From positions 11,761 through 43,760 of the forward strand of contig JBCDKM010000007.1 of NCBI GenBank assembly GCA_038746605.1: DNA of 32,000 nt, read 5' to 3'. Below are positions 1,388 to 29,054 of this stretch, piece by piece; position 1 is the stretch's first letter; every line of letters begins with the position of its first letter. Origin of the DNA: Bacteroidota bacterium. GTDB lineage: Bacteria; Bacteroidota; Rhodothermia; Rhodothermales; Rubricoccaceae. The notes below the pieces were generated by a model, which had not been told where the DNA came from, ran no database searches, and saw only the letters and a list, made by a program, of their open reading frames with translations. The position numbers and the translations under genes are program-made.

Positions 1388-2086
1388 ATGGATCGTTCTA
1401 CCGACCCCGGGTTCGACGCGCGCCGCGCCGCGGGCTATGACACTCACATCCGCCGTATCGCGCCGGGCTACGATGTCTTGCACGATCACATCGCGACGCT
1501 CTTCCTGCGCGCGTTGAGTCCAACGGCACACCTCCTCATCGTAGGCGCCGGGACGGGGGCCGAGGTCGAGCGGCTCGGGCGCGTGGCGCCGGGCTGGCAC
1601 TTCACCGCTGTCGATCCATCGCCCGACATGCTCGCGAAGTGCGCCGAGCGTGTGGATGCGGCGGGGATGACCGGCCGCGTTCGCTATGTAGAGGGCACCA
1701 CAGACGCCGCGCCGCTGGGCCCCTTCGACGCTGCCACGTCTATCTGCGTCGCCCACTTCGTTCTCGATTCAGACGGGCGAGTGCAGTTCTTTGCTGCTAT
1801 CGCCGAGCGCCTCCGGCCCGGAGCTCCGTTCGTCCAGGCCGACCTGTTCCGACCGGGCGCCGAGGCGGCACATGAGCTCCTGATGGGGACATGGCGCCGC
1901 ACGGTCCTCGGTGCGGGAATGCCGGAAGAAGAGGCAGAAGCGTTCTTCGGTCGGGTAAACCAGAACGTCTGTCTCGCGGATGAGGAGACGCTCTCGCGAG
2001 AAAGCACCGCTGCCGGGTTCGGCCCGCGCGTCCGGTTCCACCAATCGCTGTTGTGGGGCGCGTGGCTCATGGAGCGCACCTCGTGA
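1388..2086 (+). CDS. Class I SAM-dependent methyltransferase
   Basis: The glycine-rich SAM motif LIVGAGTGAE is followed by FTAVDPSPDML and a Rossmann-type strand pattern. Third-position GC is high. Confidence 0.75.
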   Translation: MDRSTDPGFDARRAAGYDTHIRRIAPGYDVLHDHIATLFLRALSPTAHLLIVGAGTGAEVERLGRVAPGWHFTAVDPSPDMLAKCAERVDAAGMTGRVRYVEGTTDAAPLGPFDAATSICVAHFVLDSDGRVQFFAAIAERLRPGAPFVQADLFRPGAEAAHELLMGTWRRTVLGAGMPEEEAEAFFGRVNQNVCLADEETLSRESTAAGFGPRVRFHQSLLWGAWLMERTS

Positions 2087-2090
2087 GTGC

Positions 2091-2110
2091 CCGCCTCGGC
2101 GCCGAGGCGG
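2091..2110. repeat. CCGCCTCGG palindromic element, short-loop copy, acting as a bidirectional terminator-like hairpin
   Basis: ccgcctcgg-cg-ccgaggcgg is a perfect palindrome, extended by c2090 and g2111. It lies between the convergent stops at 2086 (+) and 2126 (-). Confidence 0.85.
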
Positions 2111-2125
2111 GCGACCTCGCGTCTC

Positions 2126-2482
2126 CTAAGCCGGCGGCCTCGGGCCGAGCGCACCGAGCAGAAGCTCATCGAGGGCGAGGATGACCGTGGCCTGATGAAG
2201 CAAGTCCGAGAGCACGTCTGCGTCGTCGTCCCAGAGGTCGAAGGTGACGGATTGGCGAGCGGTCTCGGCGCGAAGGGACCAGCCCCAGACGGCTCCGGGT
2301 TGGTCCATCGCGCCGCAGACAGCCGAGAGTGTGTCTCGCATGCGCGCCATCTCGTCCCGTGTCATGGTGAGGCCTACGCCGTTGAACCGTAGCGCGATGT
2401 TCCCGCAGCAGTGGCAGAGGCGGATGGTCCCACGATCACAAGTGGCGAGGGTAGGATCCGCGAGGGCCGTGGGGGTAGCCAT
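2126..2482 (-). CDS. Hypothetical protein with a Cys-rich N-terminus
   Basis: 118-aa ORF with coding-like composition and the segment CDRGTIRLCHCCGNIALRF. I recognise no family. Confidence 0.45.
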   Translation of the reverse strand: MATPTALADPTLATCDRGTIRLCHCCGNIALRFNGVGLTMTRDEMARMRDTLSAVCGAMDQPGAVWGWSLRAETARQSVTFDLWDDDADVLSDLLHQATVILALDELLLGALGPRPPA

Positions 2483-2494
2483 AAAAGCGAAGCG

Positions 2495-2521
2495 CCCCGC
2501 TGGTGGTGGGGACCAGCGGGG
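2495..2521 (-). terminator. Putative intrinsic terminator after hmuY
   Basis: The arms ccccgctgg and ccagcgggg form a 9-bp stem with a 9-nt loop, 9 nt past the hmuY TAG stop. On the minus strand it is followed by cgcttcgcttttatg. Confidence 0.4.
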
Positions 2522-2529
2522 CGAGAGAG

Positions 2530-3249
2530 CTAAAGAGTGACCGGGGTGGTGGTCTCGAAGCCGCGCGAGCCGTCCGGCTGGAGAACGTAGTCGAACGTGT
2601 AGTAGCGGCCCGTGTCTGTGTTGGGGTCTGGGGTGGCCGGGTTGTTCTCGTAGTAGCTCAGGATGCGCATCTTCGCATAGTCGCCCTCGCTTGTCTGGAG
2701 AACGATGGTGCGGCCCGCGAGCGGCGAGACGAGGTTGAGCTGGCCGTTGTAGTTGTACCAGCCGTTGTCCGAACCGGTGCAGACGGCATACGGCGCACCG
2801 GGGAAGGTGCCCCCTGGTGTTTCGACGGCGGGGCAGGAGTTCTGACCGTCCTGGAGGTAGCCGTCCGCTGGCGCCTCTGTCAACTCGGCGAAGAGCGTGC
2901 TTTCCAGAAGCTGGCCGCGAACCGTGCCCGGACCACTGATCCCGCTGTTGAAGATGATCGTCGTGGTCTTAAAGCCGATGTCCCAAGCCGTCCCCGTCGA
3001 GTCAGCAGCCCGGACGGCGGGGTCCGTCTCGTTAGACGAGAGGACGATCGAGCCGGTGTCGATGTCGTAGAGGGTGAACAACTCCCGACCGACCGGGCCA
3101 GTCGGGCCGAAGCCGATGGCGAGGTCCGCGGGGATGTTCGTAGCCGTCTGGACATCGAGTGGGATTGGGTCCGGCTCAGGGTCGGCGGAGTCGCAGGCGG
3201 TGAGGGTGAGCGCGCCAAGAAGGAGCGCGCAGAGAGTGAAGCGGTTCAT
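2530..3249 (-). CDS. hmuY: HmuY-family heme-binding lipoprotein
   Basis: Start taken at ATG 3249, giving MNRFTLCALLLGALTLTAC (lipobox). AWDIGFKTTTIIFNSGISGPG resembles the HmuY WDIAF...NGG.SG block. It lies directly downstream of a TonB-dependent receptor. The part of the ORF upstream of 3249 overlaps the receptor and looks spurious. Confidence 0.7.
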   Translation of the reverse strand: MNRFTLCALLLGALTLTACDSADPEPDPIPLDVQTATNIPADLAIGFGPTGPVGRELFTLYDIDTGSIVLSSNETDPAVRAADSTGTAWDIGFKTTTIIFNSGISGPGTVRGQLLESTLFAELTEAPADGYLQDGQNSCPAVETPGGTFPGAPYAVCTGSDNGWYNYNGQLNLVSPLAGRTIVLQTSEGDYAKMRILSYYENNPATPDPNTDTGRYYTFDYVLQPDGSRGFETTTPVTL

Positions 3250-9490: not shown

Positions 9491-11724
9491 TCCACCTCCA
9501 CGCGGATGCCGACCGACGGGATGACACGGAACTGGTCCACCCGCTCGCCCTGGAAGAGGTCGAACGTGTAGAGATTCGCGCGATCGGTGGCATTGATGAG
9601 GGAGCCTTGCACGACGAGCCCCGCCGCGCCGAGGTCAAACCGACGTTCGGCGGAAAGATCGAGGCGGAAGTACGCGGGTGTACGGGTGTCGTAGGGCGTG
9701 TCCGTGAGCACGACGGCAGGCTGCCCCTCCTCGGTGCGTGTATCCGAGGGGCGGCGACCGCCTACGTCCAAGAACGCCCCGACGACACGGCTGTAGGGGC
9801 GACCGGAGGCGAGCTCGGCGCGAGCCCCGAGAGACCACCCTGCGGCGTCCACGCGAGCCACGAGGCGACCGCGATGCGTGCGGTCGTGAGGTGGGTTGTA
9901 GGCGTCCGGGGCCTCGCCCTCGGTCGAAGCGCGGTTGCCCTGGCGGTAGGTGTCGCGGTAGACCGTCCGCGAGAGGCCGTACACAGCGTCCAGCGAAAGG
10001 GGACCCAGGCGCCAATCCGCGCGCATGTCCAGGCCGATGACTTCGCCGTCTACGCGGGCGGGCTCCGGGTCTGTGAGGAGAAGAACCTGATTGTAGAGCT
10101 GCTTGCCGTAGACCTCCACGCCGAGGCCGAACGTGCGACCGAAGCGGCCGTCCCACCCCGCGATGCCATGCACGGCGCGAGGAATGCCCCGCCCGTCAAT
10201 GGTGGGGGCCCAAGCGATGAACCCGTCACCGACATCGAGCTGGTCTGCGAGGCCGATGATCTCCTGGCGATAGAGGCCGCCCGCCAGGGAGACCGCATGG
10301 TCGTCTGTGATCTCCCAGGTGGCCCGGCCCCGAGGTTCCACAGAGGGGTTCCGGGTCTGGCTCGGAAAGCCCTGGATTCGGATGCCGGGCTCCAGCGTGA
10401 TCCGCGGGCCAATCGCGATGTCAGCGTCTACGAAGAAGTGGCCTTCGGTTGTGTTCTCGCGGGTACTGCCCTCGAAGGTGTCGAAGGCGTAATCGAAGAG
10501 GAAGGTCTGACCGCCAAATCCGGCCCGAACGGTGTGGGGGCCGAGGTAGTAGACGTAGCCGAAGTTGCCGCCGTAGGCGCTGGCCGTGGAAGCGCGGGTG
10601 GCGCCGCGCGTGGGCTCGAACTCAGCGGTGTAGCGCGTGGCAAAAACGCCGATATCGAGGGCGGCGGCGAAGTGGGGCGAGATGGAAAAGAAGCGCCCTG
10701 CTGCGCCCTCGTTGCTCCAGCGGACGCCCGCCTCGCCGTTGGGTCCGGCCGCGAGTGCCCCCCGGTCGCTCGTGCGGAGCGCGGTGGCGGTCAGGAAGGT
10801 CGTGCCGTCGAGTTGGGCGTGGACCTTCGCGAGTGCGTCGCCGAAGCGGTACGGGAAATCACGCCCCACGGCCTGCCCCACGTCCTCCACGACGGACTCG
10901 CGCACGCTCACCACCGCAGAGACGGCGCCGGGCACGATGGGCCCTTCGAGCTGGAGTCCCGCGAGGAAGGGTGCCGCCGTCGCTCGTGCCGCGAAGCGCT
11001 GCTTGCTGCCGTTGCGCGTGGTCACGTCTACGACGGATGAGATGCGACCACCGTAGCGTGCGGGATAGCCGCCCGCATAGATGTCGGCCTGCGAGACCAC
11101 GTCGGCCGGGATGGCAGAGTAGAACCCGACGATGTGAAATGGCTGGAACAGTGGGATGCCGTCCACGAGCACGAGGTTTTGAACCGGCGTGCCGCCGCGC
11201 ACGGTGAGTTGGCCGCCTCGGTCGCCGAGGGCGACGACCCCGGGTTGGAAGGTGATGGCCTGCAGGAGGTCGCCGCCGGGATCCGGGCCGGGGAGGTTGG
11301 CGATTTCCGCTGGGCGGAGGGCGACGCGTCCGGCCTGGATCGGCTCGCGATCCGAGCCCGCCTCGACGAGCACATCGCCGATCTCGCGCGGGCGCAGTTC
11401 GATCACGTACTCGATCTCGGCACCGGGCTCCAGCGCGAGGGTGTCGGTCCGGGTGACGTGCCCGGTGAACGAAGCGCGGAGCGTATACCGGCCGGGCGCC
11501 ACGTCGGTGAAGATGAAGCCGCCTTCAGCAGTGGCGGCGCGGCCTCTCGGGGTGGCGTTAGGCGCGTCAAGGCTTGTGAGGAGGACACTCGCTCCAGGGA
11601 GCACCTCGCCTGTCCCAGCCTCGCGCACGATACCCGCCAGCGTAGCGGACTCATCACCCGTGGGTTGGGCAGCGAGAGCCGGTGCGAGCACCAGCACGGC
11701 GAGCAGGAGAACAAATCGCGCCAC
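9487..11724 (-). CDS. TonB-dependent outer-membrane receptor with carboxypeptidase-regulatory-like N-terminal domain
   Basis: Signal peptide MARFVLLLAVLVLAPALAAQ. LAGIVREAGTGEVLPGASVLL...GGFIFTDVAPGRYTL is CarboxypepD_reg-like. The plug carries VLVDGIPLFQPFH. A long beta-barrel with alternating pattern follows. Confidence 0.8.
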   Translation of the reverse strand: MARFVLLLAVLVLAPALAAQPTGDESATLAGIVREAGTGEVLPGASVLLTSLDAPNATPRGRAATAEGGFIFTDVAPGRYTLRASFTGHVTRTDTLALEPGAEIEYVIELRPREIGDVLVEAGSDREPIQAGRVALRPAEIANLPGPDPGGDLLQAITFQPGVVALGDRGGQLTVRGGTPVQNLVLVDGIPLFQPFHIVGFYSAIPADVVSQADIYAGGYPARYGGRISSVVDVTTRNGSKQRFAARATAAPFLAGLQLEGPIVPGAVSAVVSVRESVVEDVGQAVGRDFPYRFGDALAKVHAQLDGTTFLTATALRTSDRGALAAGPNGEAGVRWSNEGAAGRFFSISPHFAAALDIGVFATRYTAEFEPTRGATRASTASAYGGNFGYVYYLGPHTVRAGFGGQTFLFDYAFDTFEGSTRENTTEGHFFVDADIAIGPRITLEPGIRIQGFPSQTRNPSVEPRGRATWEITDDHAVSLAGGLYRQEIIGLADQLDVGDGFIAWAPTIDGRGIPRAVHGIAGWDGRFGRTFGLGVEVYGKQLYNQVLLLTDPEPARVDGEVIGLDMRADWRLGPLSLDAVYGLSRTVYRDTYRQGNRASTEGEAPDAYNPPHDRTHRGRLVARVDAAGWSLGARAELASGRPYSRVVGAFLDVGGRRPSDTRTEEGQPAVVLTDTPYDTRTPAYFRLDLSAERRFDLGAAGLVVQGSLINATDRANLYTFDLFQGERVDQFRVIPSVGIRVEVE

Positions 11725-11777
11725 GGGTCGGAGAGGACGGGGCGAAAGCTAGTGGTGGTCCGGGCGGATCGGAGGGC

Positions 11778-13229
11778 ATGCGCCCGTACCCCGCTACGGA
11801 GTCTCGGGCTCCCGGAAGCGCTCCCGAGGCGGTCCGGGCGGGCCGGAAACCTCGCGGATCCCTAGCTTCGGCGCCCGTGCCCCGACCGCTTCCCCGGCTC
11901 CTCCTCGCTTCCACAGCGCTGCTCGCGCTAGGCTGGACGGTCTACGTCCTCGCAGGAGACGCCCTCGCGGGCGTACTGGCCGACCGTCTTCGGGGCGCCG
12001 TCCGCGCCGCCACAGACGGTAAACTCCGCGACGCCGCTCCGTTTTTTCTCCACCGGCTCCGGGACGCGCTCGTCATCGCGGCGGCGATCGTGGGCGCGTG
12101 GGCGCTGAACTGGGCCGTGGTGCCGAGGGTGTCCAAGTGGAAGGGGGCGTGGCTGCCGCTCGGGGCGCTTTTCTTCGTGGAGGCGAACGTGATTCTTGCC
12201 GTGATGGCGCGGACCGGGCTCTTCTGGTTCGCGATGTACGCGGGCGGCAGCGCGCACGATGTCTCGCGCTTCTACGTCCGCCAGGCCATCGCGACGGATG
12301 CGAACGCGGAGCGCCTGGTCGGCATCATTGGGAGCAGCCAGGCGGGTACGCAGATCGACGAGGACCAGATCAACGAGGCCCTTGGCGACGACCTCTACGC
12401 AGCGCAACTCAACTTCCCTGCCGCGAAGCCCTACTCGTTGCTTCTCCTGCAGGACGACCTGGAGCGCGTCCGCCCCGATGCCCTCGTGCTCTACCTCAGC
12501 GAGGTCTCGTTCCTACGCGGCACCGGCCTGGAGCACCTCCCGCTCTTCGCCTCTGCAGGCGCTCTGTCTGACTTCGCCCGCCTCGGTGGTGAGGCGGACT
12601 GGGACCGCGACCGTGTCCGCAACGGCTGGATCTCGGCTGCCGTCCCAGCCTATCGGCTTCGAAGTCCACTCTCGCAGCGATTCTTAGGTCGTACCAGTGT
12701 CCCGCGCCCGGCGGAGATGAACCTCCCCGACGACGACCTTCCGAACCCGAAGGCCATTCAGGACATCGCGGAGGACGATCCCATCTTCCAGGCCGAGTTG
12801 GAGCGCCGCGCGCGGCTCCTCATCTACGGTGAACCCGTCGACTTCCAGTACCGCGCTCTCGAAGTCTTCGCCCAGCGCGCCGACGCGGCGGGCATCGACC
12901 TCTACCTCCTGCCAGGCACGGTTCACCCCGCGTTGGAAGCGCGCCTGCCGGAGGGCACGCGGGCGCAGATGTTGTCCGTCCTGCGCGGCCTTGGGGAGCG
13001 GTACGAGCGCGTCCACTACGTGGAGGAGGCCCGCCTTCCTCGCCTGGAGCACGCCGACTTCAAGGACCCGGCCCATGGCTCGAAGCGGGGCCAAGAGCGG
13101 TTCACCGCCGGACTAGTGGAGGTGCTGCGCGAGGAGATCCTCGGCGAGACGCCCGTGCGGCCGGACTCACTCGTCACAGTCGCGAGCGTTTCCTCTGAGA
13201 CCCATCAGTCGGACGGAGCCGCGCGATGA
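11778..13229 (+). CDS. Membrane-anchored SGNH/DUF1574-like protein, putative acyl-transfer partner of the downstream MBOAT
   Basis: N-terminal TM helices are followed by VGIIGSSQAG (GDS-like block I) and ADFKDPAHGS (D-x-x-H block V). The stop overlaps the MBOAT start as ATGA. The start is uncertain: ATG 11778, GTG 11877, or the ORF start at 11682. Confidence 0.5.
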   Translation: MRPYPATESRAPGSAPEAVRAGRKPRGSLASAPVPRPLPRLLLASTALLALGWTVYVLAGDALAGVLADRLRGAVRAATDGKLRDAAPFFLHRLRDALVIAAAIVGAWALNWAVVPRVSKWKGAWLPLGALFFVEANVILAVMARTGLFWFAMYAGGSAHDVSRFYVRQAIATDANAERLVGIIGSSQAGTQIDEDQINEALGDDLYAAQLNFPAAKPYSLLLLQDDLERVRPDALVLYLSEVSFLRGTGLEHLPLFASAGALSDFARLGGEADWDRDRVRNGWISAAVPAYRLRSPLSQRFLGRTSVPRPAEMNLPDDDLPNPKAIQDIAEDDPIFQAELERRARLLIYGEPVDFQYRALEVFAQRADAAGIDLYLLPGTVHPALEARLPEGTRAQMLSVLRGLGERYERVHYVEEARLPRLEHADFKDPAHGSKRGQERFTAGLVEVLREEILGETPVRPDSLVTVASVSSETHQSDGAAR

Positions 13230-14740
13230 TCTTCAACTCCCTCGCGTTCCTCGTCTTCCTCCCGGTCGTCATCGGGGCGTACTACCTGCTGCGAAAGGCC
13301 CGGCTGCAGAACCGGTTTCTGCTCGTCGCGAGCTACGTCTTCTACGGCTGGTGGGACTGGCGCTTCCTGCTCCTCATCGCGCTTTCCACCGTCGTGGACT
13401 TCTGGGTGGCGCGGCGCATCGACGCGAGGCGCGAGGCGGTCGGGCCGGACGCCGAGGCGGGCGCCCTCAAGAAGACGCTCCGCCCCTACCTCTGGGTCAG
13501 CCTCGCGGTCAACCTCGGGGTGCTAAGCTTCTTCAAGTACTTCAACTTCTTCTCCGGCAGCGCCGAGGACTTGATGCTCAGCCTCGGCATGACGCCGGAC
13601 TGGCCGACGCTGGGCGTCATCCTCCCGGTCGGCATCTCGTTCTACACGTTCCAGACGCTCAGCTACACCGTGGACGTCTACCGCGGCACGATGCGCGCCG
13701 TGGACGACTTCTTCGACTTCGCGCTCTACGTCTCGTTCTTCCCGCAGCTCGTCGCGGGACCCATCGAGCGGGCGCAGACGCTGATGCCGCAGGTCCAGCA
13801 GGCCCGCACGTTCAGCCGCTCCCAGTTCACCGACGGCGCGTGGCTCATCCTCCTCGGCTTCGTCAAGAAGGTGGTCATCGCGGACCAGCTCGGCCGCATC
13901 GCCGACCTCGGCTTCCAGACGGACACCCCCGAGTACGGCTGGCTCGGCGCCTTCCTCTTCTCGGCCTGCTTCGCCTTCCAGGTCTACGGCGACTTTTCAG
14001 GCTACTCGGACATCGCGCGGGGCACGGCCAAGCTGATGGGCTTCGAGCTGATGATCAACTTCGGCAAGCCGTTCCTGATCACCAACCCGAGCGCGTTCTG
14101 GCGGCACTGGCACATCTCGCTCTCCACGTGGCTGCGGGACTACCTCTACATCCCGCTCGGCGGCAGCCGGGGCGGCAACACTGCCGCCTACCGCAATCTC
14201 ACGATCACGATGATTCTCGGCGGGCTGTGGCACGGGGCAGGCTGGGGCTTCGTGCTCTGGGGCCTCTACCATGGCGTGCTCCTCAGCATCCACCGCTACT
14301 GGAGCCGCAACGTGTGGGCCAAGGTGCCGTGGCCGCAGGGCCTCCGCATCGCGACGGGCAAGGAGCAGATCGCTACGCGAGGGATCAGTAACGGGCTCTC
14401 GCACGCGCTGCTCGTGACGGGCTTCTTTGTGTTCTTTCTCTCGCACTGGATGGTGTTCCGCTCCTCCACGCTGCCGGAGGGCAACTCCCAGTGGACCTAC
14501 GTGGTGAACTGGCTCGGGGAGTGGTTCACGAGCGCGGGCATCGAGCAGGCCACGCCGTGGCTGCCCGCGTTTCTGCTCTTCGCGACCCTCGCGATGCTGG
14601 CCCAGTGGAAGGACGAGGCAATGGAGCACTTTTCGACGTGGACGCCCGCGCGGCAGGGGCTCGCCATCGCGGCGGCGCTGCTGACCATCGCGGTCTTCGG
14701 CGTCTTCGAGGGGACGGAATTTTTCTACTTCCAGTTCTAG
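13226..14740 (+). CDS. MBOAT-family membrane O-acyltransferase (AlgI/DltB-like)
   Basis: Polytopic membrane protein with FFPQLVAGPIER, DFSGYSDIARG, FWRHWHISLSTWLRDYLYIPLGGSR and GGLWHGAGW, which contain the conserved MBOAT histidines. Confidence 0.85.
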   Translation: MIFNSLAFLVFLPVVIGAYYLLRKARLQNRFLLVASYVFYGWWDWRFLLLIALSTVVDFWVARRIDARREAVGPDAEAGALKKTLRPYLWVSLAVNLGVLSFFKYFNFFSGSAEDLMLSLGMTPDWPTLGVILPVGISFYTFQTLSYTVDVYRGTMRAVDDFFDFALYVSFFPQLVAGPIERAQTLMPQVQQARTFSRSQFTDGAWLILLGFVKKVVIADQLGRIADLGFQTDTPEYGWLGAFLFSACFAFQVYGDFSGYSDIARGTAKLMGFELMINFGKPFLITNPSAFWRHWHISLSTWLRDYLYIPLGGSRGGNTAAYRNLTITMILGGLWHGAGWGFVLWGLYHGVLLSIHRYWSRNVWAKVPWPQGLRIATGKEQIATRGISNGLSHALLVTGFFVFFLSHWMVFRSSTLPEGNSQWTYVVNWLGEWFTSAGIEQATPWLPAFLLFATLAMLAQWKDEAMEHFSTWTPARQGLAIAAALLTIAVFGVFEGTEFFYFQF

Positions 14741-14909: not shown

Positions 14910-15983
14910 ATGAGTACCGACTGGGCCAGCGACCGCCGTCTCGACATCCTCGTCCTCGGCCCAATGGGCGAGGATCCCGCAGGTCCGACCTCGACCGTTC
15001 CAATCCGCGACGCACTCGAACGCCTCCTGCAGGAAGACGAGATCCGTGCGCTCCTCGACGCTCGCAGCGTCCAGAGCGCGACGGTTCATATGCCCGAGGG
15101 GCAGAACGAGCCCGAGATCGTTCAGCGAGTGCTCCACCTGCTCGACACCGCCGACCTCGTGGTGTTCAACCTCAACCCGAAGGAGAGCACCCCGGACCGC
15201 GCCAACGTCTTCTACGAGCTTGGGCTCGTCCACGCGCTCGGCATCCCGTCCATGCTCGTTGCCTCGGCAGGCACCGAGGTGCCGTTCTACGTTCAAAGCG
15301 TCCGCCGTTACATCGCCAGCGACTTCGAGGTCTCGACGCTAGCCGACCTGCTCCGCCAGCCTCTCCGCGACTTCCTCGATACCACCAACGCGGCCACGTT
15401 CGCCAATGACCGCGTGAGCCAGTTCTACCGGGCGCCCGTCATCAATATCTCGGCGGCGGCCGGATTAGCGGTGGGCTACTACTTCAACTTTCTCGCCCGG
15501 CTGATCACCGAGGGCGGCTTTCTCGCGGAGTACCCGGATGCCTATCGGCACGTCGTCTACGTCCGCCCGTCCTCTCTGGAGACGACCTATCAGGCCGACC
15601 AGGAGCGGCTGCGCCGAGCGCTGGAAGCAGAGGGGCTTACACTCGAAACCGGGCGTCAGCTCAAAGCGATCCCAGCCGACAACAAGGGGCCGATCTGGTA
15701 CGACCACGTCGAGGACATCGTGATCGACATTCCCCGAGCGATCTACACGCTGCGGCGCTCGCCGCGGCTACTCTCGTTCCTGGCGCGAGCCCCGGCCGAG
15801 CGGATCCAAGAAGCTGCGTTCGAGCAGCGACTCCTGCAGATCGGACAGGACTTGCTCTCAGACGTGGAAGCTGCGCTGCGGTATCAGGTCCGTGAGGACG
15901 CCATGCGCGTGCGGCGCGAGATCCTGCACCTCAGCACAATTGAGGAGGCCCCGGCGCTCGTGCAGAGGCTGCTGGAGGGCTGA
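14910..15983 (+). CDS. TIR-like (Rossmann, catalytic-Glu type) N-terminal domain fused to a STING cyclic-dinucleotide-sensor domain
   Basis: C-terminal half: AAGLAVGYYFNFLARLI matches human STING GLAWSYYIGYLRLIL, HVVYVRP matches LYILLP, and VIDIPRAIYTL matches VLEYATPLQTL. N-terminal half: LDILVLGPMGE...ADLVVFNLNPKESTPDRANVFYELGLVHALGIP resembles the TIR module of bacterial TIR-STING effectors. Confidence 0.6.
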   Translation: MSTDWASDRRLDILVLGPMGEDPAGPTSTVPIRDALERLLQEDEIRALLDARSVQSATVHMPEGQNEPEIVQRVLHLLDTADLVVFNLNPKESTPDRANVFYELGLVHALGIPSMLVASAGTEVPFYVQSVRRYIASDFEVSTLADLLRQPLRDFLDTTNAATFANDRVSQFYRAPVINISAAAGLAVGYYFNFLARLITEGGFLAEYPDAYRHVVYVRPSSLETTYQADQERLRRALEAEGLTLETGRQLKAIPADNKGPIWYDHVEDIVIDIPRAIYTLRRSPRLLSFLARAPAERIQEAAFEQRLLQIGQDLLSDVEAALRYQVREDAMRVRREILHLSTIEEAPALVQRLLEG

Positions 15984-16307
15984 GCAGGATCACCGCGACC
16001 CTGCGGGTGTGCTGGCGGTGCTCACGCACGGTGATGACAGGCGCCAATCGGCACGGCTCTCGCGAGGTCTCTGGCGCGGCACCGCTCGCACTCTCTACAT
16101 TTTCAGCGTCTTCCCCGGGCGCTCGCTTGACTGTTTTTCTCTCAGACGTTTCCTTCGAGCTGGGCGGCTACCGCCGCCGCCTCGCGCACAACTCCACGCT
16201 CTCCCGGGTGCGCCCGCAGATGTGGTGGCGCGAGAAGATTTCCGGCAAGAGCCAGAGGCGCTACTCCCCTGCCCTGGCTGGCGGACCAGATTCGCGAGGC
16301 CGACGCT

Positions 16308-16703
16308 GTGGTCCACCTCACGGGCGAGGTGCCCGGCGCGATGCCGATCGAGGTGCACGTCTGTCGTCTCTACGCCCACCTCAGCGACGAGCCCGAGGCG
16401 CGGCGCCTGCTGGAGGAGGCGATCCGCATCGAGCGGCTGCAGTTCGATCCCCGTCACGTCAATCTCGTCATCCGGTATCTCAACCTCGCCCACGTTCTGT
16501 GGGACAGCGGTGAGCAGGACGGGGCTGCCACGCTCGCTCAGATCGCCCTCGCCATCTTTCTCTTCCGACTCGGTCCCGAGCACGAGCACTCGTACGCGAA
16601 TACCGCGCAGGGTGCACTGCACACTCTCGATCCCGCGTGGGTGGAAGCTGTCAAAGCAGGAGAAGCGAACCCCTTCGAATACCTGCCCCTTGAAGCGCTA
16701 TGA
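16308..16703 (+). CDS. TPR-like helical-repeat protein; probably the 3' part of a longer frameshifted gene starting near 16127
   Basis: EARRLLEEAIRIERLQFDPRHVNLVIRYLNLAHVLWDSGEQDGAATLAQIALAIF forms TPR-like helix pairs. The start shown is GTG. High third-position GC continues upstream in this frame to about 16269, then switches to another frame (see finding). The stop overlaps the next start as ATGA. Confidence 0.5.
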   Translation: MVHLTGEVPGAMPIEVHVCRLYAHLSDEPEARRLLEEAIRIERLQFDPRHVNLVIRYLNLAHVLWDSGEQDGAATLAQIALAIFLFRLGPEHEHSYANTAQGALHTLDPAWVEAVKAGEANPFEYLPLEAL

Positions 16704-19084
16704 ATCCCTCTCGTCGCTCCGCTTGGCTCCTGCTCATCATCGCCGCCAGCGGTTTGGTTGCGTATTGGAGCACGTTCGCCGCGCTCGCGGGGACCAGCTT
16801 CGGGCCGGAACGCTTTTTCTCGGCGGCTACCATCTTCTCGTTTTCCGTCCCAGAAGGCGCGGATGGCATCGGGGTGCCCCTCGCGCAGATCGCTGCGCTC
16901 GTGTTCGGGTTCACAGCCGTCCTAGGCGTTGCTCTCGAACTCTCGCCGAGCGTCCGAAGCGCTCTGCGACGTCTCCACTTCCGGCTCCGCCGAGGCATCC
17001 TCCGTCGCCGTCCGGCGGTGGTGATCGGGCTAGGCTGGGTCGGTGGAGCGCTCGCCGAAGAGATCCGCCAGTCGGGCCGTCCGGTCTACGCCCTCGCGCT
17101 GGACAAACGCGGCCCCCGCGCCGAGGCTGCTGTTCGCGTCGGCGTCCTCGTGGAAGAGGGCGACGCGACGACGGACGAGGCGCTGGAGAGGGTACCGCTC
17201 GCTGCCGCCGAGGAGGTGTTCATCGCTACCGGTGAGGACATGCGCAACCTCGAAATCGCGGGCTCCATCCTGCGCAGCACGTCTGGCCGGGGCCGTCGAG
17301 TGTACGTCCACATCGGAGATCCGAGCATCGGCGTCACGGCCGTCAAGCGTGAGGTGCTGCCCCGCGAGGCTGGCGGCACGGAGTACTACCTCTTCAGCGT
17401 CCACGACAACGCCGCGTCGCTGGTCGCGGCCGATCTCCACCGCCAGGCCTCGTGGGCGGACGATGAGGCGCTGCATGTCGTCCTCGTCGGGTTCGGGATG
17501 CTAGGGCAGACGCTCGCGCTTCGGCTGGCACGGTCGCTGCACGGCCCCAATCACCGCCGCCTCCGGCTGACGGTCCTGTGCAGCCCATCTGAGCGGAGCG
17601 CCGTGGCTCGCTTTCGCGCCCTCCATCCCGGCTTCGCTCCTGCGCCTGGCTTCTCGCTCCGCGACTGGAATCCGGCCCGCGATGCATGGGACGTGACCGC
17701 TGGTACCGATCCCGCCGCCGAGTCATGGCGCACAGCCGCTCTCCATCCTCGGGCGGTCGAGGTGGCCGTGCTGGCGGAGTTCGTCGAGACGGCGACACCT
17801 GTGTCTCCCGAGACCACCGCCTTACTTCTGGACCGGTTCACGGCGCGCGAGGGCGTGCGGGTGCGCCCGGCGATTGTGGTGGCGACGGATCAGGAGAAGC
17901 TGAACGCCCGGTACGCGGTCGGTCTGCAGGACGCGCTGCTCGTCGCCCGCCAGTGGCCCCCGGTCCCGCCGAGGCGTCAAGACGAATCGCCAGACCTCGC
18001 ACACACGCCCGTTCCCACGGATGGCATCGCGCCCGTCGTGCCGCTCCACCCGTACCTCTTCGACGAGACGGGCTTGCACGCCCTCATGGAGGAGATGCAG
18101 CGACTAGACCTTGCCTCCGGTGTGCCGCGAGACGTGAAGGGTTGGGAGAAGCAGCAGCGTGCCCGCAGCCACCCGCTCCGGCCCTTCGGCTTCCGCACGG
18201 CGACTGCCAGCTACGGCGTCGTCACGCGCACCCGCGAACGGGAAGACGCGAAGCGGCTCCATGAGATGTACCGGCTCCTCGCCGGTCAGCCGGATGAGCC
18301 GATCCCGTCCGCCTTCGAGATCTCGAACCTGGACGCCGTCGCGCTGGCGTATCGCGTCTTCGAACGCTACTTCGTGGCCTCGCCGTATCGCCTCACACCA
18401 GACGAGGCTGAAGCTGCCGGTGTACAGTTCGATCCCGTTCTGGCTCCCTCTCTTCCAGATGAGTTGCTCGACGAGAGTGTCCGCCCGTTCTGGCTGCTGG
18501 CTCGTCTGTTCAGTTGGTCACCGGACAATCCCTCAAGGAAGGAAGCCCAATGGTTTCAGGAAGAATGGGCGATGGACTTGCATCCCACCATCCGCCCGCG
18601 TCTGGGGGAGTCCGAGGAGCGCCGCAAGCTCCGCGAGGATGCAATCGGGGATCTACAGAAGTGGATCAAAGAGTGCGCTGACCATGATAGGCGTCGGCAG
18701 ATCATGCTCGACGAGTACCGTAGCGATACGCCAGTCGAAAGAAGTATCCACACCGACAAATTCCTGGAGGGATTCAAGCAAAAGATCGGTCAAGACCTCG
18801 CCGACCGACTGGCGGAAACGGAGCACAACCGCTGGATGGCCGAACGCCTCGCCCTAGGCTGGCGCTATGGCCAGCGCTCAGACTCCGGCCGACGCCGCGA
18901 GACGTTCCTCGTCTGGGACGATCTCACCGAAGAGCAGCGGGTGTACGACCGAGCGCACCTGCCCCGCCTGATTCTCGAAAGTCAGGCCGCTTTCGGGAGC
19001 TGCAAGCCGGGCACATTCTACTATCTCCGTACGATGCCTCAGCCCTCACTAGACGACCCGCCCGCTAGTGGAGTCACGGCGTAG
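16700..19084 (+). CDS. Membrane protein with two Rossmann (RCK/TrkA-N-like) domains and a C-terminal RyR domain
   Basis: TM helices AWLLLIIAASGLVAYWSTFAAL and VPLAQIAALVFGFTAVLGVAL. GxGxxG motifs occur in VVIGLGWVGGALAEEI (then VYALALD) and VVLVGFGMLGQTLALRL. The C-terminal AETEHNRWMAERLALGWRYGQRSDSGRRRETFLVWDDLTEEQRVYDR matches the RyR-domain pattern. Confidence 0.65.
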   Translation: MNPSRRSAWLLLIIAASGLVAYWSTFAALAGTSFGPERFFSAATIFSFSVPEGADGIGVPLAQIAALVFGFTAVLGVALELSPSVRSALRRLHFRLRRGILRRRPAVVIGLGWVGGALAEEIRQSGRPVYALALDKRGPRAEAAVRVGVLVEEGDATTDEALERVPLAAAEEVFIATGEDMRNLEIAGSILRSTSGRGRRVYVHIGDPSIGVTAVKREVLPREAGGTEYYLFSVHDNAASLVAADLHRQASWADDEALHVVLVGFGMLGQTLALRLARSLHGPNHRRLRLTVLCSPSERSAVARFRALHPGFAPAPGFSLRDWNPARDAWDVTAGTDPAAESWRTAALHPRAVEVAVLAEFVETATPVSPETTALLLDRFTAREGVRVRPAIVVATDQEKLNARYAVGLQDALLVARQWPPVPPRRQDESPDLAHTPVPTDGIAPVVPLHPYLFDETGLHALMEEMQRLDLASGVPRDVKGWEKQQRARSHPLRPFGFRTATASYGVVTRTREREDAKRLHEMYRLLAGQPDEPIPSAFEISNLDAVALAYRVFERYFVASPYRLTPDEAEAAGVQFDPVLAPSLPDELLDESVRPFWLLARLFSWSPDNPSRKEAQWFQEEWAMDLHPTIRPRLGESEERRKLREDAIGDLQKWIKECADHDRRRQIMLDEYRSDTPVERSIHTDKFLEGFKQKIGQDLADRLAETEHNRWMAERLALGWRYGQRSDSGRRRETFLVWDDLTEEQRVYDRAHLPRLILESQAAFGSCKPGTFYYLRTMPQPSLDDPPASGVTA

Positions 19085-19347
19085 CCCAGTAGGAGGGTGG
19101 CTTTAATGGCCTCCAGCGCGGTCCGGCGGTCGTAGTCCTTTTCTTCCTCGCTGAGTTCGGCGTATGGCATCAGCCCGGGGTGCCTCTTCGCGTCGTCGTC
19201 ACGTCGCGGGCCGTAGGTCCAGCCCTCCGAGAGCCGCCCCTTCGCCCACACATCGTGGACGTGCTCAGCCAGCTGTTCCACGAGCCCATCTAGACCAGAG
19301 GGGAGCACGATGGAATCAGTCGGGAGGGGAGCGGGAGTGTAGGCCAC
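19039..19347 (-). CDS. Stand-alone RyR-domain protein
   Basis: [56 protein letters not shown] is a near-textbook RyR (ryanodine-receptor repeat) motif. The 3' end overlaps the convergent 16700..19084 gene by 46 bp. Confidence 0.65.
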
Positions 19348-21611: not shown

Positions 21612-21690
21612 GGGATGGGGCCAGTGGCCAGCGGCCAGTGGTCCACCCGACCTGCCATGCCTGCTGCTGCGTCTTCCCGTTCCACTCCGT

Positions 21691-21710
21691 CCGCCTCGGG
21701 CCCGAGGCGG
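21691..21710. repeat. CCGCCTCGG palindromic element, short-loop copy, terminator-like after gyrB
   Basis: ccgcctcgg-gc-ccgaggcgg, 80 nt past the gyrB stop. Confidence 0.85.
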
Positions 21711-21743
21711 GGGGACCCGGTCGGGGCTGAACCCAGGGGGCCG

Positions 21744-22217
21744 ATGACGTGGGCGGAGGTCTGCGCCCGTCCCGAACTCCGCGACCTCCCGTACAAGATC
21801 GAACTCGACCGCTACGGCCGGATCGTGATGAGCCCTGCTCCCTCGCGCCACAGGATCCTCCAGCGCCGCCTACAGAAAATCCTCGAAGACGCGCTGGGAG
21901 GCATCGCCATCCCGGAGTGCCCTGTGGATACGCCCGAGGGCACGAAGGTGGCCGATGTGGCGTGGATGGAGGAGACGTTCGCGATGGAGCATCAAGACAC
22001 AGCCGCATTCCCTGTCGCACCACCGGTCTGCGTCGAGATCATGTCGCGCTCGAACACGACGGGCGAGATGGAAGAGAAGGTGATGATTTACCTTGCGAAG
22101 GGCGCGCAGGAGGTCTGGGTGCACCAGCGTGACGGGCGGCTCCGGTTCTTTGCGCACGAGGGCGAGATCGAGCGCTCTCGCCTCGCACCGGACGCGCCCA
22201 TGGCGGTCGAGCTGTGA
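21744..22217 (+). CDS. Uma2-family (DUF820) PD-(D/E)xK endonuclease
   Basis: From ATG 21744: YKIELDRYGRIVMSPAP, VADVAWM, PPVCVEIMSRSNTTGEMEEKVMIYLAKGAQEVWV is the typical Uma2 core. The upstream part of the ORF covers a repeat and looks non-coding. Confidence 0.7.
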   Translation: MTWAEVCARPELRDLPYKIELDRYGRIVMSPAPSRHRILQRRLQKILEDALGGIAIPECPVDTPEGTKVADVAWMEETFAMEHQDTAAFPVAPPVCVEIMSRSNTTGEMEEKVMIYLAKGAQEVWVHQRDGRLRFFAHEGEIERSRLAPDAPMAVEL

Positions 22218-26931: not shown

Positions 26932-28650
26932 ATGCGCCCGCTCGCCTTCGCCTTCGCCCTCGCGCTCTTCGCCGCACCCGCCCTCGCGCTCTTCGCCGCA
27001 CCCGCCCTCGCCCAGCCGCTCGGCCTCCCGGACGGCCCCCCGTACGTCCTCACCGGCGCGACGATCTACACCGTGGACCGCGCCAACCCCACCGCCGAAG
27101 CGTTGGCCGTGGGCGCGATGGGGGAGGTGGTCGCCGTCGGCACCGAGGCGGACGTGCTTGCGGCCTACCCGGACTGGCCCCGCGCCTCCGCCGAGGGTCG
27201 CGCCGTCATCCCGGGCTTGATCGACGCGCACGGGCATCTGATGGGTTTCGGTGAGACTCTCCTCCAGGCCGACCTCGTCGAGGCAGCATCCATCGAAGAG
27301 ATCGTCGAGCGTCTCCGCCAGTTCGCCGATGGGTTGCCCGAAGGCGCGTGGCTCGTCGGGCGCGGCTGGGACCAGAACGACTGGCCCGCGCAGCCCGATG
27401 GCTCGCACCCGTTCCCTACCCGCGCCGACCTCGACTCGGCCTTCCCGAACCGCCCCGTCGCGCTGACTCGCATCGACGGGCACGCGCTCTGGGCGAATAC
27501 TGCCGCGATGGTCGCCGCCGGTCTGGACCCCGAGACCCCTGCCCCCGCCGATCCGGAGGACGGACAGTTCCTCCGCGATGACCGAGGCCGCCCGACAGGC
27601 GTCTTCGTGGATGCGGCCGAACTCGTCGTCACGGACGCTATCCCGACGCTCTCTGCCGAGACCCGTGCAGAGGCGCTGACCCGCGCCCTCGCGGAGACCG
27701 CGCGGCACGGCCTCACGGGCGTCCACGAGGCGGGGATCCCGATAGCGCTTCTTCCGCTCTACGAGCGGCTCATCACTGAAGGCCGCTTCCCGATCCGCAA
27801 CTACGCGATGCTGAGCATGGACCAACTCGGCACGTTTTGCAAAGCCTACCCCGAGGGTTACGAGGGCAACGCCCGCCTCCGGGTGCAGTCGCTCAAAGTC
27901 TACTCCGATGGTGCGCTCGGGAGCCGGGGCGCCGCGCTCCTCGCGGACTACTCCGACGATCCCGGCAATACGGGCCTCCTGTTCCAGAACACGGAGACGC
28001 TGACGCGGACCGTCACACAGGCGATGAACTGTGGGCTCCAGGTCAACTCCCACGCCATCGGCGACCGGGGCAACCGCGCCGTCTTGGACGCCTACGAGGC
28101 CGCGATGGAAACCACGGGCGGCGGTCTGGGGCGGCACCGCATCGAGCACGCGCAGGTAATGTCCCTGCCCGACATCGAGCGGATGGCACGCCTCGGCATC
28201 ATCGCGAGCGTGCAGCCGACCCACGCGACGAGCGACATGCCGTGGGCCGAGATGCGCGTCGGGCCGGAGCGGATCAAGGGCGCGTACGCGTGGCGGCGGA
28301 TCGTGGACGCGGGGGCCCGCATCGCGCTCGGCTCAGACTTCCCGGTGGAGCGCGTCGCGCCGCTGCTCGGTTTCCACGCCGCCGTGACACGTCAGGACGC
28401 GGAGATGAATCCCGCAGGCGGCTGGTACGGCAATCAGGTGCTCTCGCGCGAGGAGGCCCTGCGCGGCTTCACGCTCGACGCGGCCTACGCCGGGTTCATG
28501 GAAGACGAGGTCGGCAGTCTGGAGCCGGGCAAGCGGGCGGACTTCGTGATTCTCTCCCAGGACCTGATGCGTGTTCCGCCGGAAGAGATCCTTGCCACGG
28601 AGGTTCTCGCGACCGTCATCGACGGAACGCCCGTCTTCGTCGCGGAATGA
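26932..28650 (+). CDS. Secreted metal-dependent amidohydrolase (Amidohydro_3 / YtcJ-like)
   Basis: Has a signal peptide, then VIPGLIDAHGHL (the HxH metal motif), NSHAIGDRG, RIEHAQV and ALGSDFPVE. Confidence 0.8.
   Translation: MRPLAFAFALALFAAPALALFAAPALAQPLGLPDGPPYVLTGATIYTVDRANPTAEALAVGAMGEVVAVGTEADVLAAYPDWPRASAEGRAVIPGLIDAHGHLMGFGETLLQADLVEAASIEEIVERLRQFADGLPEGAWLVGRGWDQNDWPAQPDGSHPFPTRADLDSAFPNRPVALTRIDGHALWANTAAMVAAGLDPETPAPADPEDGQFLRDDRGRPTGVFVDAAELVVTDAIPTLSAETRAEALTRALAETARHGLTGVHEAGIPIALLPLYERLITEGRFPIRNYAMLSMDQLGTFCKAYPEGYEGNARLRVQSLKVYSDGALGSRGAALLADYSDDPGNTGLLFQNTETLTRTVTQAMNCGLQVNSHAIGDRGNRAVLDAYEAAMETTGGGLGRHRIEHAQVMSLPDIERMARLGIIASVQPTHATSDMPWAEMRVGPERIKGAYAWRRIVDAGARIALGSDFPVERVAPLLGFHAAVTRQDAEMNPAGGWYGNQVLSREEALRGFTLDAAYAGFMEDEVGSLEPGKRADFVILSQDLMRVPPEEILATEVLATVIDGTPVFVAE
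26957..27004 (+). repeat. Perfect 24-bp tandem duplication inside the amidohydrolase signal-peptide coding region
   Basis: ccctcgcgctcttcgccgcacccg occurs twice back to back (26957-26980 and 26981-27004), giving ALALFAAPALALFAAPALAQ. Confidence 0.9.
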
Positions 28651-29054
28651 CGCGCGAGGACATCCGCCGAAGCCGGTTCCTCTCGCTGGTCCTCCGCCAC
28701 CGCCCCGAGGCGGCTGGACTTGTGCTCGATGCGGAGGGCTGGGCTGAGGTCTCAGCGCTTCTACGCGGCGCGACGCAGCGCGGGGTGGATCTCTCACCTG
28801 GGGACGTGGTGAGGGTGGTGCAGGACAACGACAAGCAGCGATTCGAACTCAGCCCGGACGGCGCTCGCATCCGTGCGAGGCAGGGGCACTCCGTCCCCGT
28901 CGACCTCGGCCTAGCGCCACGCATCCCGCCGGACGTTCTCTTCCACGGGACGGTCGCCCGTGTGCTGCCCGCGATCCGCCGCGAAGGTCTCCGCCCGATG
29001 CAGCGTCACCACGTTCATCTCTCGCCCGACCGCGAGACGGCGGAGCGCCGGTAG
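28647..29054 (+). CDS. kptA: RNA 2'-phosphotransferase (Tpt1/KptA family), C-terminally truncated relative to E. coli KptA
   Basis: SRFLSLVLRHRPEAAGLVLDAEGWA, KQRFELSPDGARIRARQGHS, LFHGT and QRHHVHLSPDRETAERR* are present. The ORF stops about 45 residues before where E. coli KptA ends (from memory). The ATG overlaps the amidohydrolase stop as ATGA. Confidence 0.7.
   Translation: MTREDIRRSRFLSLVLRHRPEAAGLVLDAEGWAEVSALLRGATQRGVDLSPGDVVRVVQDNDKQRFELSPDGARIRARQGHSVPVDLGLAPRIPPDVLFHGTVARVLPAIRREGLRPMQRHHVHLSPDRETAERR

Follow-up and report, generated by a model that had tools for sequence, protein, structure and literature searches.

To date, bacterial STING is understood solely as an effector of cyclic oligonucleotide-based antiphage signaling systems (CBASS), fed by an adjacent CD-NTase. 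A coherent, multi-phylum protein family without an adjacent cyclase poses the question of what a STING domain responds to if it lacks a dedicated synthase. One member is encoded at 14910-15983 (+ strand) of a 32,000-nucleotide stretch of DNA, hereafter the window, from a Bacteroidota bacterium (Rhodothermales; Rubricoccaceae; assembly GCA_038746605.1, contig JBCDKM010000007.1, positions 11,761 to 43,760). The protein joins an enzyme domain related to nucleoside 2-deoxyribosyltransferases (NDT) and DNPH1 to a prokaryotic STING domain, and the recurrent neighbor of this NDT-STING fusion is a membrane protein that ends in a RyR domain.

An NDT-like domain fused to STING

The open reading frame (ORF) at 14910-15983 begins with ATG and encodes 357 amino acids, as described in a preliminary description of the locus, and NCBI lists a 100%-identical protein, encoded on a 209-kb contig, under the name 'MAG: STING domain-containing protein [Bacteroidota bacterium]'. 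Both domains passed the Pfam cut-offs, prok_STING (PF20300) with 42.2 bits against 27.1 and Nuc_deoxyrib_tr (PF05014) with 29.6 bits against 28.8; NCBIfam gave no match to the protein, and PADLOC gave weak TIR-effector matches only (E~3e-4). The protein was modeled with AlphaFold2 (AF2; pLDDT 87, pTM 0.76) and the model compared with the PDB using Foldseek, for which the top match was the full-length TIR-STING protein SfSTING, 7un8_A (359 columns, E=4e-7, TMt 0.58, probability 1.00). SfSTING 7un9, FsSTING 6wt4 (TMt 0.69-0.71), PcSTING 7ebd (0.61) and Riemerella STING 8hy9 (0.61) were also among the matches. Because PF20300 scores well over its cut-off and the family profile finds the solved bacterial STINGs CgSTING 6wt5 and FsSTING 6wt4 by sequence (E~1e-4), the match to STING is not due to chance, and we regard the identities of the two domains, STING and NDT-like, as practically certain.

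The STING domain covers approximately residues 175-357 (15432-15980, +) and was delimited using Pfam, profile alignment to the PDB, the model, Foldseek and column statistics. PF20300 aligns to residues 182-310 (E=9.9e-11, 130 of 137 profile positions), and alpha1, beta1, alpha2, the beta-hairpin lid, beta4 and the C-terminal helices of the STING fold are all found in the AF2 model and its Foldseek matches. Model secondary structure and alignment place the alpha1 helix (N193, F194, R197) at 15453-15506 (+) and the lid (D257, K259, G260, W263, H266) at 15645-15710 (+), and profile alignment places D273-I-P275 at 15726-15734 (+). F194 ('GYYxNF') aligns with F92 of FsSTING, the base stacker, and D273 ('DIP') with FsSTING D169 ('DFP'); they are kept in 44 and 45 of 46 family members, respectively. 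In the alignment of these 46 sequences (A1), A187, G189, Y190, P220, P285 and R286 are invariant, and column statistics show the whole S284-P285-R286 segment to be so.

Bacterial STINGs are classed by their lids, RX(Y/F) in class I, which binds cyclic di-GMP (c-di-GMP), and RXR in class II, which binds 3'3'-cGAMP, and the first lid Arg reads the Hoogsteen edge of guanine (PMC8748872). The lid of the window protein is 'PADNKGPIWYDHV', and the family consensus is D-x-(K/R)-G-x-(L/I)-W-(F/Y). In the model the hairpin, with strands at residues 246-251 and 262-267, carries D257-x-K/R259-G260-x-(L/I)-W263-(F/Y)264-x-H266. Alignment to the hidden Markov model (HMM) sets D257 and K259 on R151 and R153 of FsSTING, with an uncertain exact loop register, and neither RX(Y/F) nor RXR is recognizable in the family (profile alignment and column statistics, 46 sequences). 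Since the canonical lid motif is absent, c-di-GMP should not be assumed to be the ligand of this STING domain. Certain non-canonical STING fusions without lid motifs were left unassigned in specificity by Hou et al. (PMC10739871).

The N-terminal domain (approximately residues 10-165; 14937-15404, +) is an NDT/DNPH1-like N-glycosidase domain of the TIR superfamily, identified using Pfam, profile alignment, Foldseek and conservation. PF05014 aligns to residues 36-122 with 29.6-30.8 bits and matched 16 of 16 family members tested, among which TIR_2 was weakly matched by two (E~0.01) and CAP12-PCTIR_TIR by one (0.064). The window protein has no TIR Pfam match, including the canonical families PF13676 and PF10137. 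The best structural matches of the domain in the PDB are DNPH1 8rps and 8qhr (TMt ~0.64-0.66), followed more weakly by trypanosomatid NDTs; a single-sequence PDB search with the domain gave no match. The family profile 'aDlvvlnltp..spnvfYElgLvhaLGlP' aligned with 'ADVVVAEVTQ..PSLGVGYELGRAVALGKP' of Rcl/DNPH1 (Rcl 2klh/4fyh; 'ADVVVAEV..GVGYELG'). Within the domain D82, Y102, E103 (codon 15216-15218), G111, P113, P125 and Y127 are invariant in A1, as are P62, I70 and L148. From this alignment and from what is established for DNPH1 and NDT, we take E103 to be the catalytic nucleophile.

L14 appears, on the basis of motif alignment, to occupy the position of a second active-site residue, a Tyr ('ILVLGP' against 'LYFCGS' in DNPH1 and 'IYFAG' in NDT). 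In the 46 sequences this column is Leu, Val, Met, Ile or Phe and never Tyr. The Tyr, hydrogen-bonded to the Glu, accounts in part for the 2'-deoxy specificity of NDT and DNPH1 enzymes (PMC11204291). As the specificity Tyr is never found at this position in the family, ribo-substrates such as NAD+ may be accepted by the domain.

The peptides quoted in the preliminary description were all found (AAGLAVGYYFNFLARLI at residues 183-199, DIP at residues 273-275, and YEL with E103), and its proposal of a STING domain fused to a Rossmann-type TIR/deoxyribosyltransferase-like module was borne out by Pfam, by profile comparison with the PDB, and by the AF2 model with Foldseek. It had placed the helix and the D-I-P strand in the ligand pocket, correctly, since F194 and D273 align with the pocket residues F92 and D169 of FsSTING. 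The N-terminal half had been called TIR-like with a catalytic Glu; it is indeed Rossmann-type and the Glu is invariant, and the assignment is narrowed here to NDT/DNPH1-like rather than canonical TIR.

Searching by word index yielded 77 clusters with both domains, 340-390 amino acids in length. When 1.84 billion representatives were searched exhaustively with a profile, 134 clusters were recovered at E<=1e-30 and 307 at E<=1e-10, almost all of them matching over the full length, for a family of ~130-300 clusters counted at 50% identity. Members in the Bacteroidota belong to Rhodothermaceae, Cyclobacterium, Lunatibacter, Parafilimonas and Lacihabitans, and others were found in Verrucomicrobiota, Alpha-, Beta- and Gammaproteobacteria, and Chloroflexota, in a patchy distribution. 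No homolog of the STING gene was found by tblastn in plasmid and phage collections.

Missing cyclase and recurrent RyR neighbor

Using Pfam, no SMODS/CD-NTase, GGDEF or DisA_N/DAC domain was found in the whole 32-kb window. The region from 11.7 to 19.4 kb, where the absence of a nucleotidyltransferase had already been remarked upon, encodes a 515-aa unannotated protein, an MBOAT protein, the NDT-STING protein, a 131-aa TPR protein, a 794-aa protein with TrkA_N and RyR domains, and a 102-aa RyR protein; the remark holds and extends to the rest of the window, which includes genes for TonB-dependent receptors, HmuY, GDPD, glycosyltransferases, gyrB, Uma2, an amidohydrolase and Tpt1/KptA. Two candidates for a cryptic cyclase were ruled out, the 515-aa ORF (11682-13229), which has no Pfam match and is paired with the MBOAT gene, and the middle region of the 794-aa protein, which is a second Rossmann/RCK domain.

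Homolog loci were fetched from genomes (34) and metagenomes (45) and dereplicated at 90% STING identity to 56 loci from at least 4 phyla. No SMODS, GGDEF or DisA domain occurred in the Pfam contexts of six STING homologs and of the P0004 locus L095, and clustering of the neighboring ORFs in the first 31 loci revealed no recurrent nucleotidyltransferase. All 56 loci were also scanned for GGDEF, DAC and Pol-beta motifs within 5 kb on either side of the gene; a Pfam check showed every loose candidate to be a false positive, these being NHL, AraC, AAA, DAO and similar proteins. CD-NTase adjacency is thus 0 of 56, and the absence of a cyclase in cis is a trait of the whole NDT-STING family. According to Morehouse 2020, as quoted in a review (PMC13276650), 84% of bacterial STINGs lie in CBASS cassettes and ~16% outside; the NDT-STING family belongs to the latter share and is very probably independent of CBASS.

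Terminator-like hairpins with T-runs, identified as consensus matches, flank the STING gene at 14701-14726 (+) before it and at 16116-16139 (+) after it. These hint that the gene may be monocistronic, with the TPR and RCK-RyR genes forming a separate transcription unit. No Rfam riboswitch was found in the window, including the 325-bp gap after the STING gene, which rules out a c-di-GMP or c-di-AMP riboswitch 3' of the gene.

The 794-aa protein (16700-19084, +) was annotated using Pfam, a transmembrane (TM) scan and Foldseek as a 2TM protein with tandem RCK domains and a C-terminal RyR domain. TM helices are predicted at residues 10-28 and 61-79, followed by a TrkA_N/RCK Rossmann domain (residues 107-207; 17018-17320; Pfam 7e-12), a second Rossmann motif (GxGxxG; GFGMLG) at about residues 258-280, and the RyR domain (residues 691-761; 18770-18982; Pfam 1e-7). 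The core of its model (pLDDT 67) matches the TrkA gating ring (4j9u/4g65), the GsuK channel (4gx0-4gx5), which binds and is gated by NAD/ADP, and MthK by Foldseek. The 102-aa protein is a stand-alone RyR protein (19039-19347, -; Pfam RyR 4e-32), convergent with the 794-aa gene and overlapping its 3' end. It also matches phage families of unassigned function (PHROG).

In the neighbor clustering of the first 31 loci, homologs of the 794-aa protein formed the largest recurrent family. RyR partners were then called with an iterated RyR HMM and recurrent partner classes tallied over all 56 loci; by this HMM every partner has a RyR domain at its C-terminus, also where Pfam matched TrkA_N only. RyR neighbors, of which the preliminary description had made no mention, were found in this C-terminal form in 17 of the 56 loci, window included, and in 12 of the 25 loci in which each flank spans 5 kb or more. 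They lie within ~700 bp of the STING gene in 12 of the 17, in convergent, divergent or co-directional orientation. The RyR-linked STINGs are 30%-100% identical to the window protein and come from Bacteroidota, Beta- and Gammaproteobacteria, and Chloroflexota. The same linkage test gave no RyR match in 205 kb of control loci. Since both its frequency and its phylogenetic spread are too high, the adjacency goes beyond chance, and a real functional link between NDT-STING and RyR proteins is likely.

Several arrangements recur. In two Betaproteobacteria (L011, L032) the STING gene and its RyR partner form a divergent two-gene module amid metabolic and housekeeping genes. The convergent, overlapping pair of large and small RyR genes is present in the window, L078 and L096, and the small RyR gene is found elsewhere in the island in L007 and L095. 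The L078 partner has an AAA-type region in place of TM-RCK and keeps the RyR domain, as would be expected if the sensor domain stays constant and the output varies.

Phage proteins with PF02026 (RyDEP) bind 2' and 3' cyclic ADP-ribose (2'cADPR and 3'cADPR) and some cleave the ribose-ribose bond (PMC13232231, bioRxiv 2026.05.28.727677, May 2026). Their key residues, catalytic H75 and D117, adenine-stacking W78, and H100 at the phosphates, are conserved across the Pfam family (PMC13232231). In the 102-aa protein, H31, W34, H56 and D73 match these positions, each offset by exactly 44. The partner RyR domains retain E-H-x-x-W and (Y/F)-D-R, and the 794-aa protein has the motif EHNRW...YDR and a Glu at the H100 position. 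By analogy with the phage proteins, the RyR domain may serve as the signal reader in NDT-STING loci.

RyR proteins also occur next to related enzymes that have no STING domain. L097 encodes an NDT-like 380-aa protein (2002-3144, +) with a different, unannotated C-terminal domain, whose N-terminal domain aligns with the family NDT domain (hhalign E=5.5e-5, 'NVLLELG'); its gene forms an operon with a TrkA_N-RyR gene that follows 4 bp downstream, and the other strand carries a small RyR gene upstream. Since this locus pairs an NDT-like enzyme with RyR in the absence of STING, it suggests a core made up of these two, to which exchangeable sensor domains are joined. On an Arcobacter plasmid (L098, CP146529.1, 6060-9783), NAD-binding (RCK), RyR and DUF4062 genes are consecutive on one strand, within an island that also encodes an integrase and a restriction enzyme of type I, and on a Methylobacterium plasmid a RyR protein adjoins a SIR2 gene. 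DUF4062 proteins are TIR-like NADases in defense, of which the characterized members are self-contained executioners and not signal makers. As L097 and the Arcobacter plasmid show the pairing beyond STING, RyR/RCK proteins pair with TIR-superfamily enzymes generally.

Setting of the loci and possible circuits

The NDT-STING loci have the setting of defense islands, with neighbors that in some of them include SIR2_2-TIR_2 plus nSTAND1, McrBC and ZorA/Zorya-like genes. DUF4062-TPR or TIR_2-TPR proteins adjoin the STING gene in ~10 of 56 loci, directly downstream in L016 and L027. In the window the neighbor on this side is the 131-aa TPR protein (16308-16703, +), whose gene overlaps the 794-aa gene at an ATGA start/stop. 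In L007 the STING homolog, 73% identical to the window protein, has a 1113-aa TIR_2-TPR protein as a neighbor; the 131-aa protein matches no more than the last ~100 residues of that protein, at 53-55% identity. A decayed full-length TIR-TPR gene was ruled out using blastx of 15900-16800, which found no upstream remnants, and the ORF is either a short gene for a small adaptor or a clean truncation or relic. In the islands of the two closest relatives (L007, 11173-17030; L095, 2197-5385), a 425-aa TraG/TrwB-like ATPase follows the STING gene and a 422-aa Cas_NE0113 (CARF-like) gene shares an operon with the small RyR gene; neither ATPase nor Cas_NE0113 is present in the window.

An unannotated family, here called U800, is encoded directly upstream of NDT-STING in L009 (7535-9958), L013 (7620-9962) and L034 (7904-9958) and is also present in L091-L094. 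Its members are ~700-800 aa long, with an N-terminal Rossmann-like region and 4 C-terminal TM helices, and with more than 160 clusters it is far larger than the STING family. No PDB match was found for U800, and no Pfam match above threshold, only sub-threshold SLOG-like ones. Its motif 'GxAGGTxETV' (with 'LVTGLCEGAD') looks LOG/SLOG-like by eye. A relationship to RCK-RyR or to the NDT domain was rejected (hhalign to NDT probability 0.1%). Because U800 is also found without STING, beside SIR2_2-TIR_2 plus nSTAND1 or DUF4062-TPR, it is probably part of SIR2-TIR/nSTAND1-type systems, and it may act in TIR systems as a membrane effector that senses nucleotides.

Elsewhere in the window, a Tpt1/KptA-family RNA 2'-phosphotransferase domain (PF01885, E=2e-34; 28650-29054, +, inside an ORF at 27837-29054) lies ~12.7 kb downstream of the STING gene, to which it is probably unrelated. 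Tpt1/KptA enzymes consume NAD+ and make ADP-ribose 1''-2'' cyclic phosphate. A Uma2-family putative restriction endonuclease gene (21615-22217, +) directly follows gyrB. At 11682-14740 (+), the stop of the 515-aa gene, which has no Pfam match, overlaps the start of the MBOAT (AlgI-like) gene; this looks like a polysaccharide O-acylation pair, unrelated to the STING gene.

As regards oligomerization, the substrate, the nature and source of the STING ligand, the direction of signaling, channel activity and a role in defense, we infer the following circuit. The C-terminal STING domain would have a small nucleotide as its ligand and, on binding it, would oligomerize in the manner of SfSTING filaments, which would switch on the NDT/DNPH1-branch N-glycosidase with E103 as nucleophile. 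By analogy with SfSTING and Thoeris, the activated domain might then cleave or transglycosylate NAD+ or a related nucleotide. An ADP-ribose (ADPR)-type product, a fall in NAD+, or both, would be sensed by the channel-like RCK-RyR partner, which would perturb membrane or ion balance and lead to abortive infection, while the small RyR protein would buffer or degrade stray signal. Among the circuits considered this one appears most likely, because RyR domains bind or hydrolyze 2'/3'cADPR and RCK domains bind NAD(H) and ADP. As a whole package, namely a non-CBASS N-glycosidase gated by a ligand, with RyR partners that read or buffer its NAD+/ADPR-type chemistry in a hybrid of CBASS and Thoeris, we judge it to be evenly balanced between true and false, and the direction from enzyme to RyR effector is proposed tentatively. 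It is rather unlikely, though it would be consequential, that NDT-STING and 2TM-RCK-RyR, with or without the small RyR protein, form an undescribed two- or three-gene immune system bridging CBASS and Thoeris, in which a STING-gated transglycosidase makes an ADPR-derived messenger and a host RyR domain, of the type ancestral to the R12 domain of animal ryanodine receptors, reads it and opens an RCK-gated channel.

Several points weigh against the proposed circuit. In about half of the well-flanked loci a RyR gene is missing from the surrounding 10 kb (e.g. L004, L015, L024, L028), so the STING enzyme is evidently at least partly self-sufficient, working alone or with unlinked partners. Defense islands bring unrelated systems side by side, and the putative coupling of STING to RyR is read from gene context. 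In the 794-aa partner no K+ selectivity filter is visible, and its N-terminal TM region and RyR domain are of low confidence in the model (pLDDT <50). NDT/DNPH1 enzymes normally use 2'-deoxynucleosides or 2'-deoxynucleotides and not NAD+, and the replacement of Tyr by Leu at L14 appears from motif alignment alone. The evidence for cADPR binding by RyR comes from a single 2026 preprint on phage proteins and would extend to bacterial RCK-RyR proteins by analogy.

The preliminary description had offered two alternatives, an orphan sensor-effector cued by a distal or housekeeping cyclase, or part of a different system. The second is favored here, because the absence of a cyclase is family-wide and an RyR membrane protein is a conserved neighbor, and the first is ranked lower. 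As an orphan CBASS-type effector, the protein would be a STING-gated suicide enzyme that depletes NAD+ or another nucleotide in response to c-di-GMP or 3'3'-cGAMP from a distant CD-NTase or from a phage, with the RyR/RCK genes unrelated. Its architecture and fold do mirror TIR-STING, the pocket residues F194 and D273 are conserved, many loci are stand-alone, and a precedent exists in the ~16% of bacterial STINGs that are not part of CBASS cassettes (Morehouse 2020, quoted by PMC13276650). We nevertheless consider it unlikely, as a dedicated partner would not be expected to be missing from the vicinity in all 56 loci and the RyR adjacency is too common and too widespread phylogenetically for chance. 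Some members also belong to Proteobacteria, in which c-di-GMP is a housekeeping signal. Moreover, the lid Arg that reads guanine in RX(Y/F) and RXR lids is not conserved (PMC8748872).

The altered lid motif would suit a STING domain that receives an ADPR-derived messenger, a cADPR isomer or similar, from neighboring TIR or TIR-like sensors (TIR_2-TPR, SIR2-TIR plus nSTAND), so that NDT-STING and RCK-RyR would be parallel effectors in a Thoeris-like system. TIR or DUF4062 proteins with TPR or STAND regions adjoin the gene in the ~10 loci noted above, and the same islands hold putative readers of ADPR signals in RyR and the SLOG-like U800. This arrangement is very unlikely, however, since the clean two-gene modules of L011 and L032 have no separate TIR gene, the window retains only the 131-aa TPR fragment, the characterized DUF4062 proteins are self-contained NADase executioners, and no STING is known to bind cADPR. 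Least probable is a housekeeping regulator, in which STING would sense a physiological dinucleotide such as c-di-AMP and, with the TrkA/RCK-type protein, control ion (K+) or nucleotide homeostasis. The partner core is TrkA/GsuK/MthK-like, c-di-AMP is known to act on RCK proteins and in this way to regulate K+ transport, and certain loci are flanked by metabolic genes alone. A bacterial STING, ElSTING, binds c-di-AMP (PMC10739871). Such a role fits poorly with the rare and patchy distribution of the family (~130-300 clusters in unrelated phyla), which is typical of mobile accessory genes, with the frequent co-location of known defense genes, with the lack of a TVGYG-type filter and of a TrkH/KtrB partner, and with RyR domains, which indicate ADPR-type ligands.

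With cultured hosts that include Cyclobacterium and Hoeflea marina, the family is a tractable set of proteins for the question of the STING ligand. The RCK-RyR linkage gives bacterial RyR domains a testable host-side role, soon after cADPR binding was shown, and possibly an evolutionary root for the nucleotide regulation of ryanodine-receptor channels. If the bridging system of CBASS and Thoeris is real, RyR gating of a channel by cADPR-type ligands would be an ancient bacterial invention; if the linkage is mere co-location in islands, the protein still represents an uncharacterized class of effector, a STING-gated NDT-like glycosidase.

Relation to known systems

The fusion architecture is already known from comparative genomics. 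Fusions of a deoxyribohydrolase (DrHyd) domain to STING were catalogued by Burroughs & Aravind 2020 (J Bacteriol), as cited in PMC10732462 and PMC10739871; as far as these citations describe the class, its domain architecture appears identical, and by its predicted domains the window protein is almost certainly a member of this computationally defined class. In a search of open-access literature that did not cover Morehouse 2020 and Burroughs & Aravind 2020, neither an experimental characterization of DrHyd-STING nor a paper linking bacterial STING with RyR/RCK was found.

With the TIR-STING proteins (Cap12) SfSTING 7un8 and PcSTING 7ebd and the TM-STING protein FsSTING 6wt4, the window protein has in common the prok_STING fold, the alpha1 Phe (F194) and the D-x-P strand (D273). 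It has the same layout as the TIR-STING of CBASS, with an N-terminal Rossmann-type glycosidase and its catalytic Glu, and aligns to SfSTING over the whole chain. It differs in that the N-terminal domain is NDT/DNPH1-like and not canonical TIR, the RX(Y/F)/RXR lid motif is absent, none of the 56 loci has a CD-NTase neighbor, and the recurrent neighbor is an RCK-RyR membrane protein. The NDT-like effectors of retrons (e.g. Ec86) and DNPH1/Rcl share the fold and the motif A-D-x-V-V...(F/Y)-E-L-G...G-(I/K)-P, and depletion of NAD+ has been reported for a retron NDT effector (review PMC13276650). In contrast to these, the window enzyme has a fused STING domain, and in its family Leu, Val, Met, Ile or Phe appears to stand at the N-terminal active-site Tyr position.

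[quoted passage not shown] Unlike in Thoeris, the enzyme here carries a STING receptor and an NDT-type active site, and the putative reader is a RyR domain on tandem RCK domains. The phage RyDEP proteins are anti-Thoeris glycosidases or sponges, with which the 102-aa protein and the C-terminus of the 794-aa protein share PF02026 and the H-x-x-W...H...D pattern, apart from the Glu of the latter at H100. The RyR proteins of the window are, however, host-encoded and linked to a host TIR-like enzyme, and because one of them is fused to a channel-like RCK module, the RCK-fused RyR protein is probably a sensor or regulator and not an immune-evasion factor.

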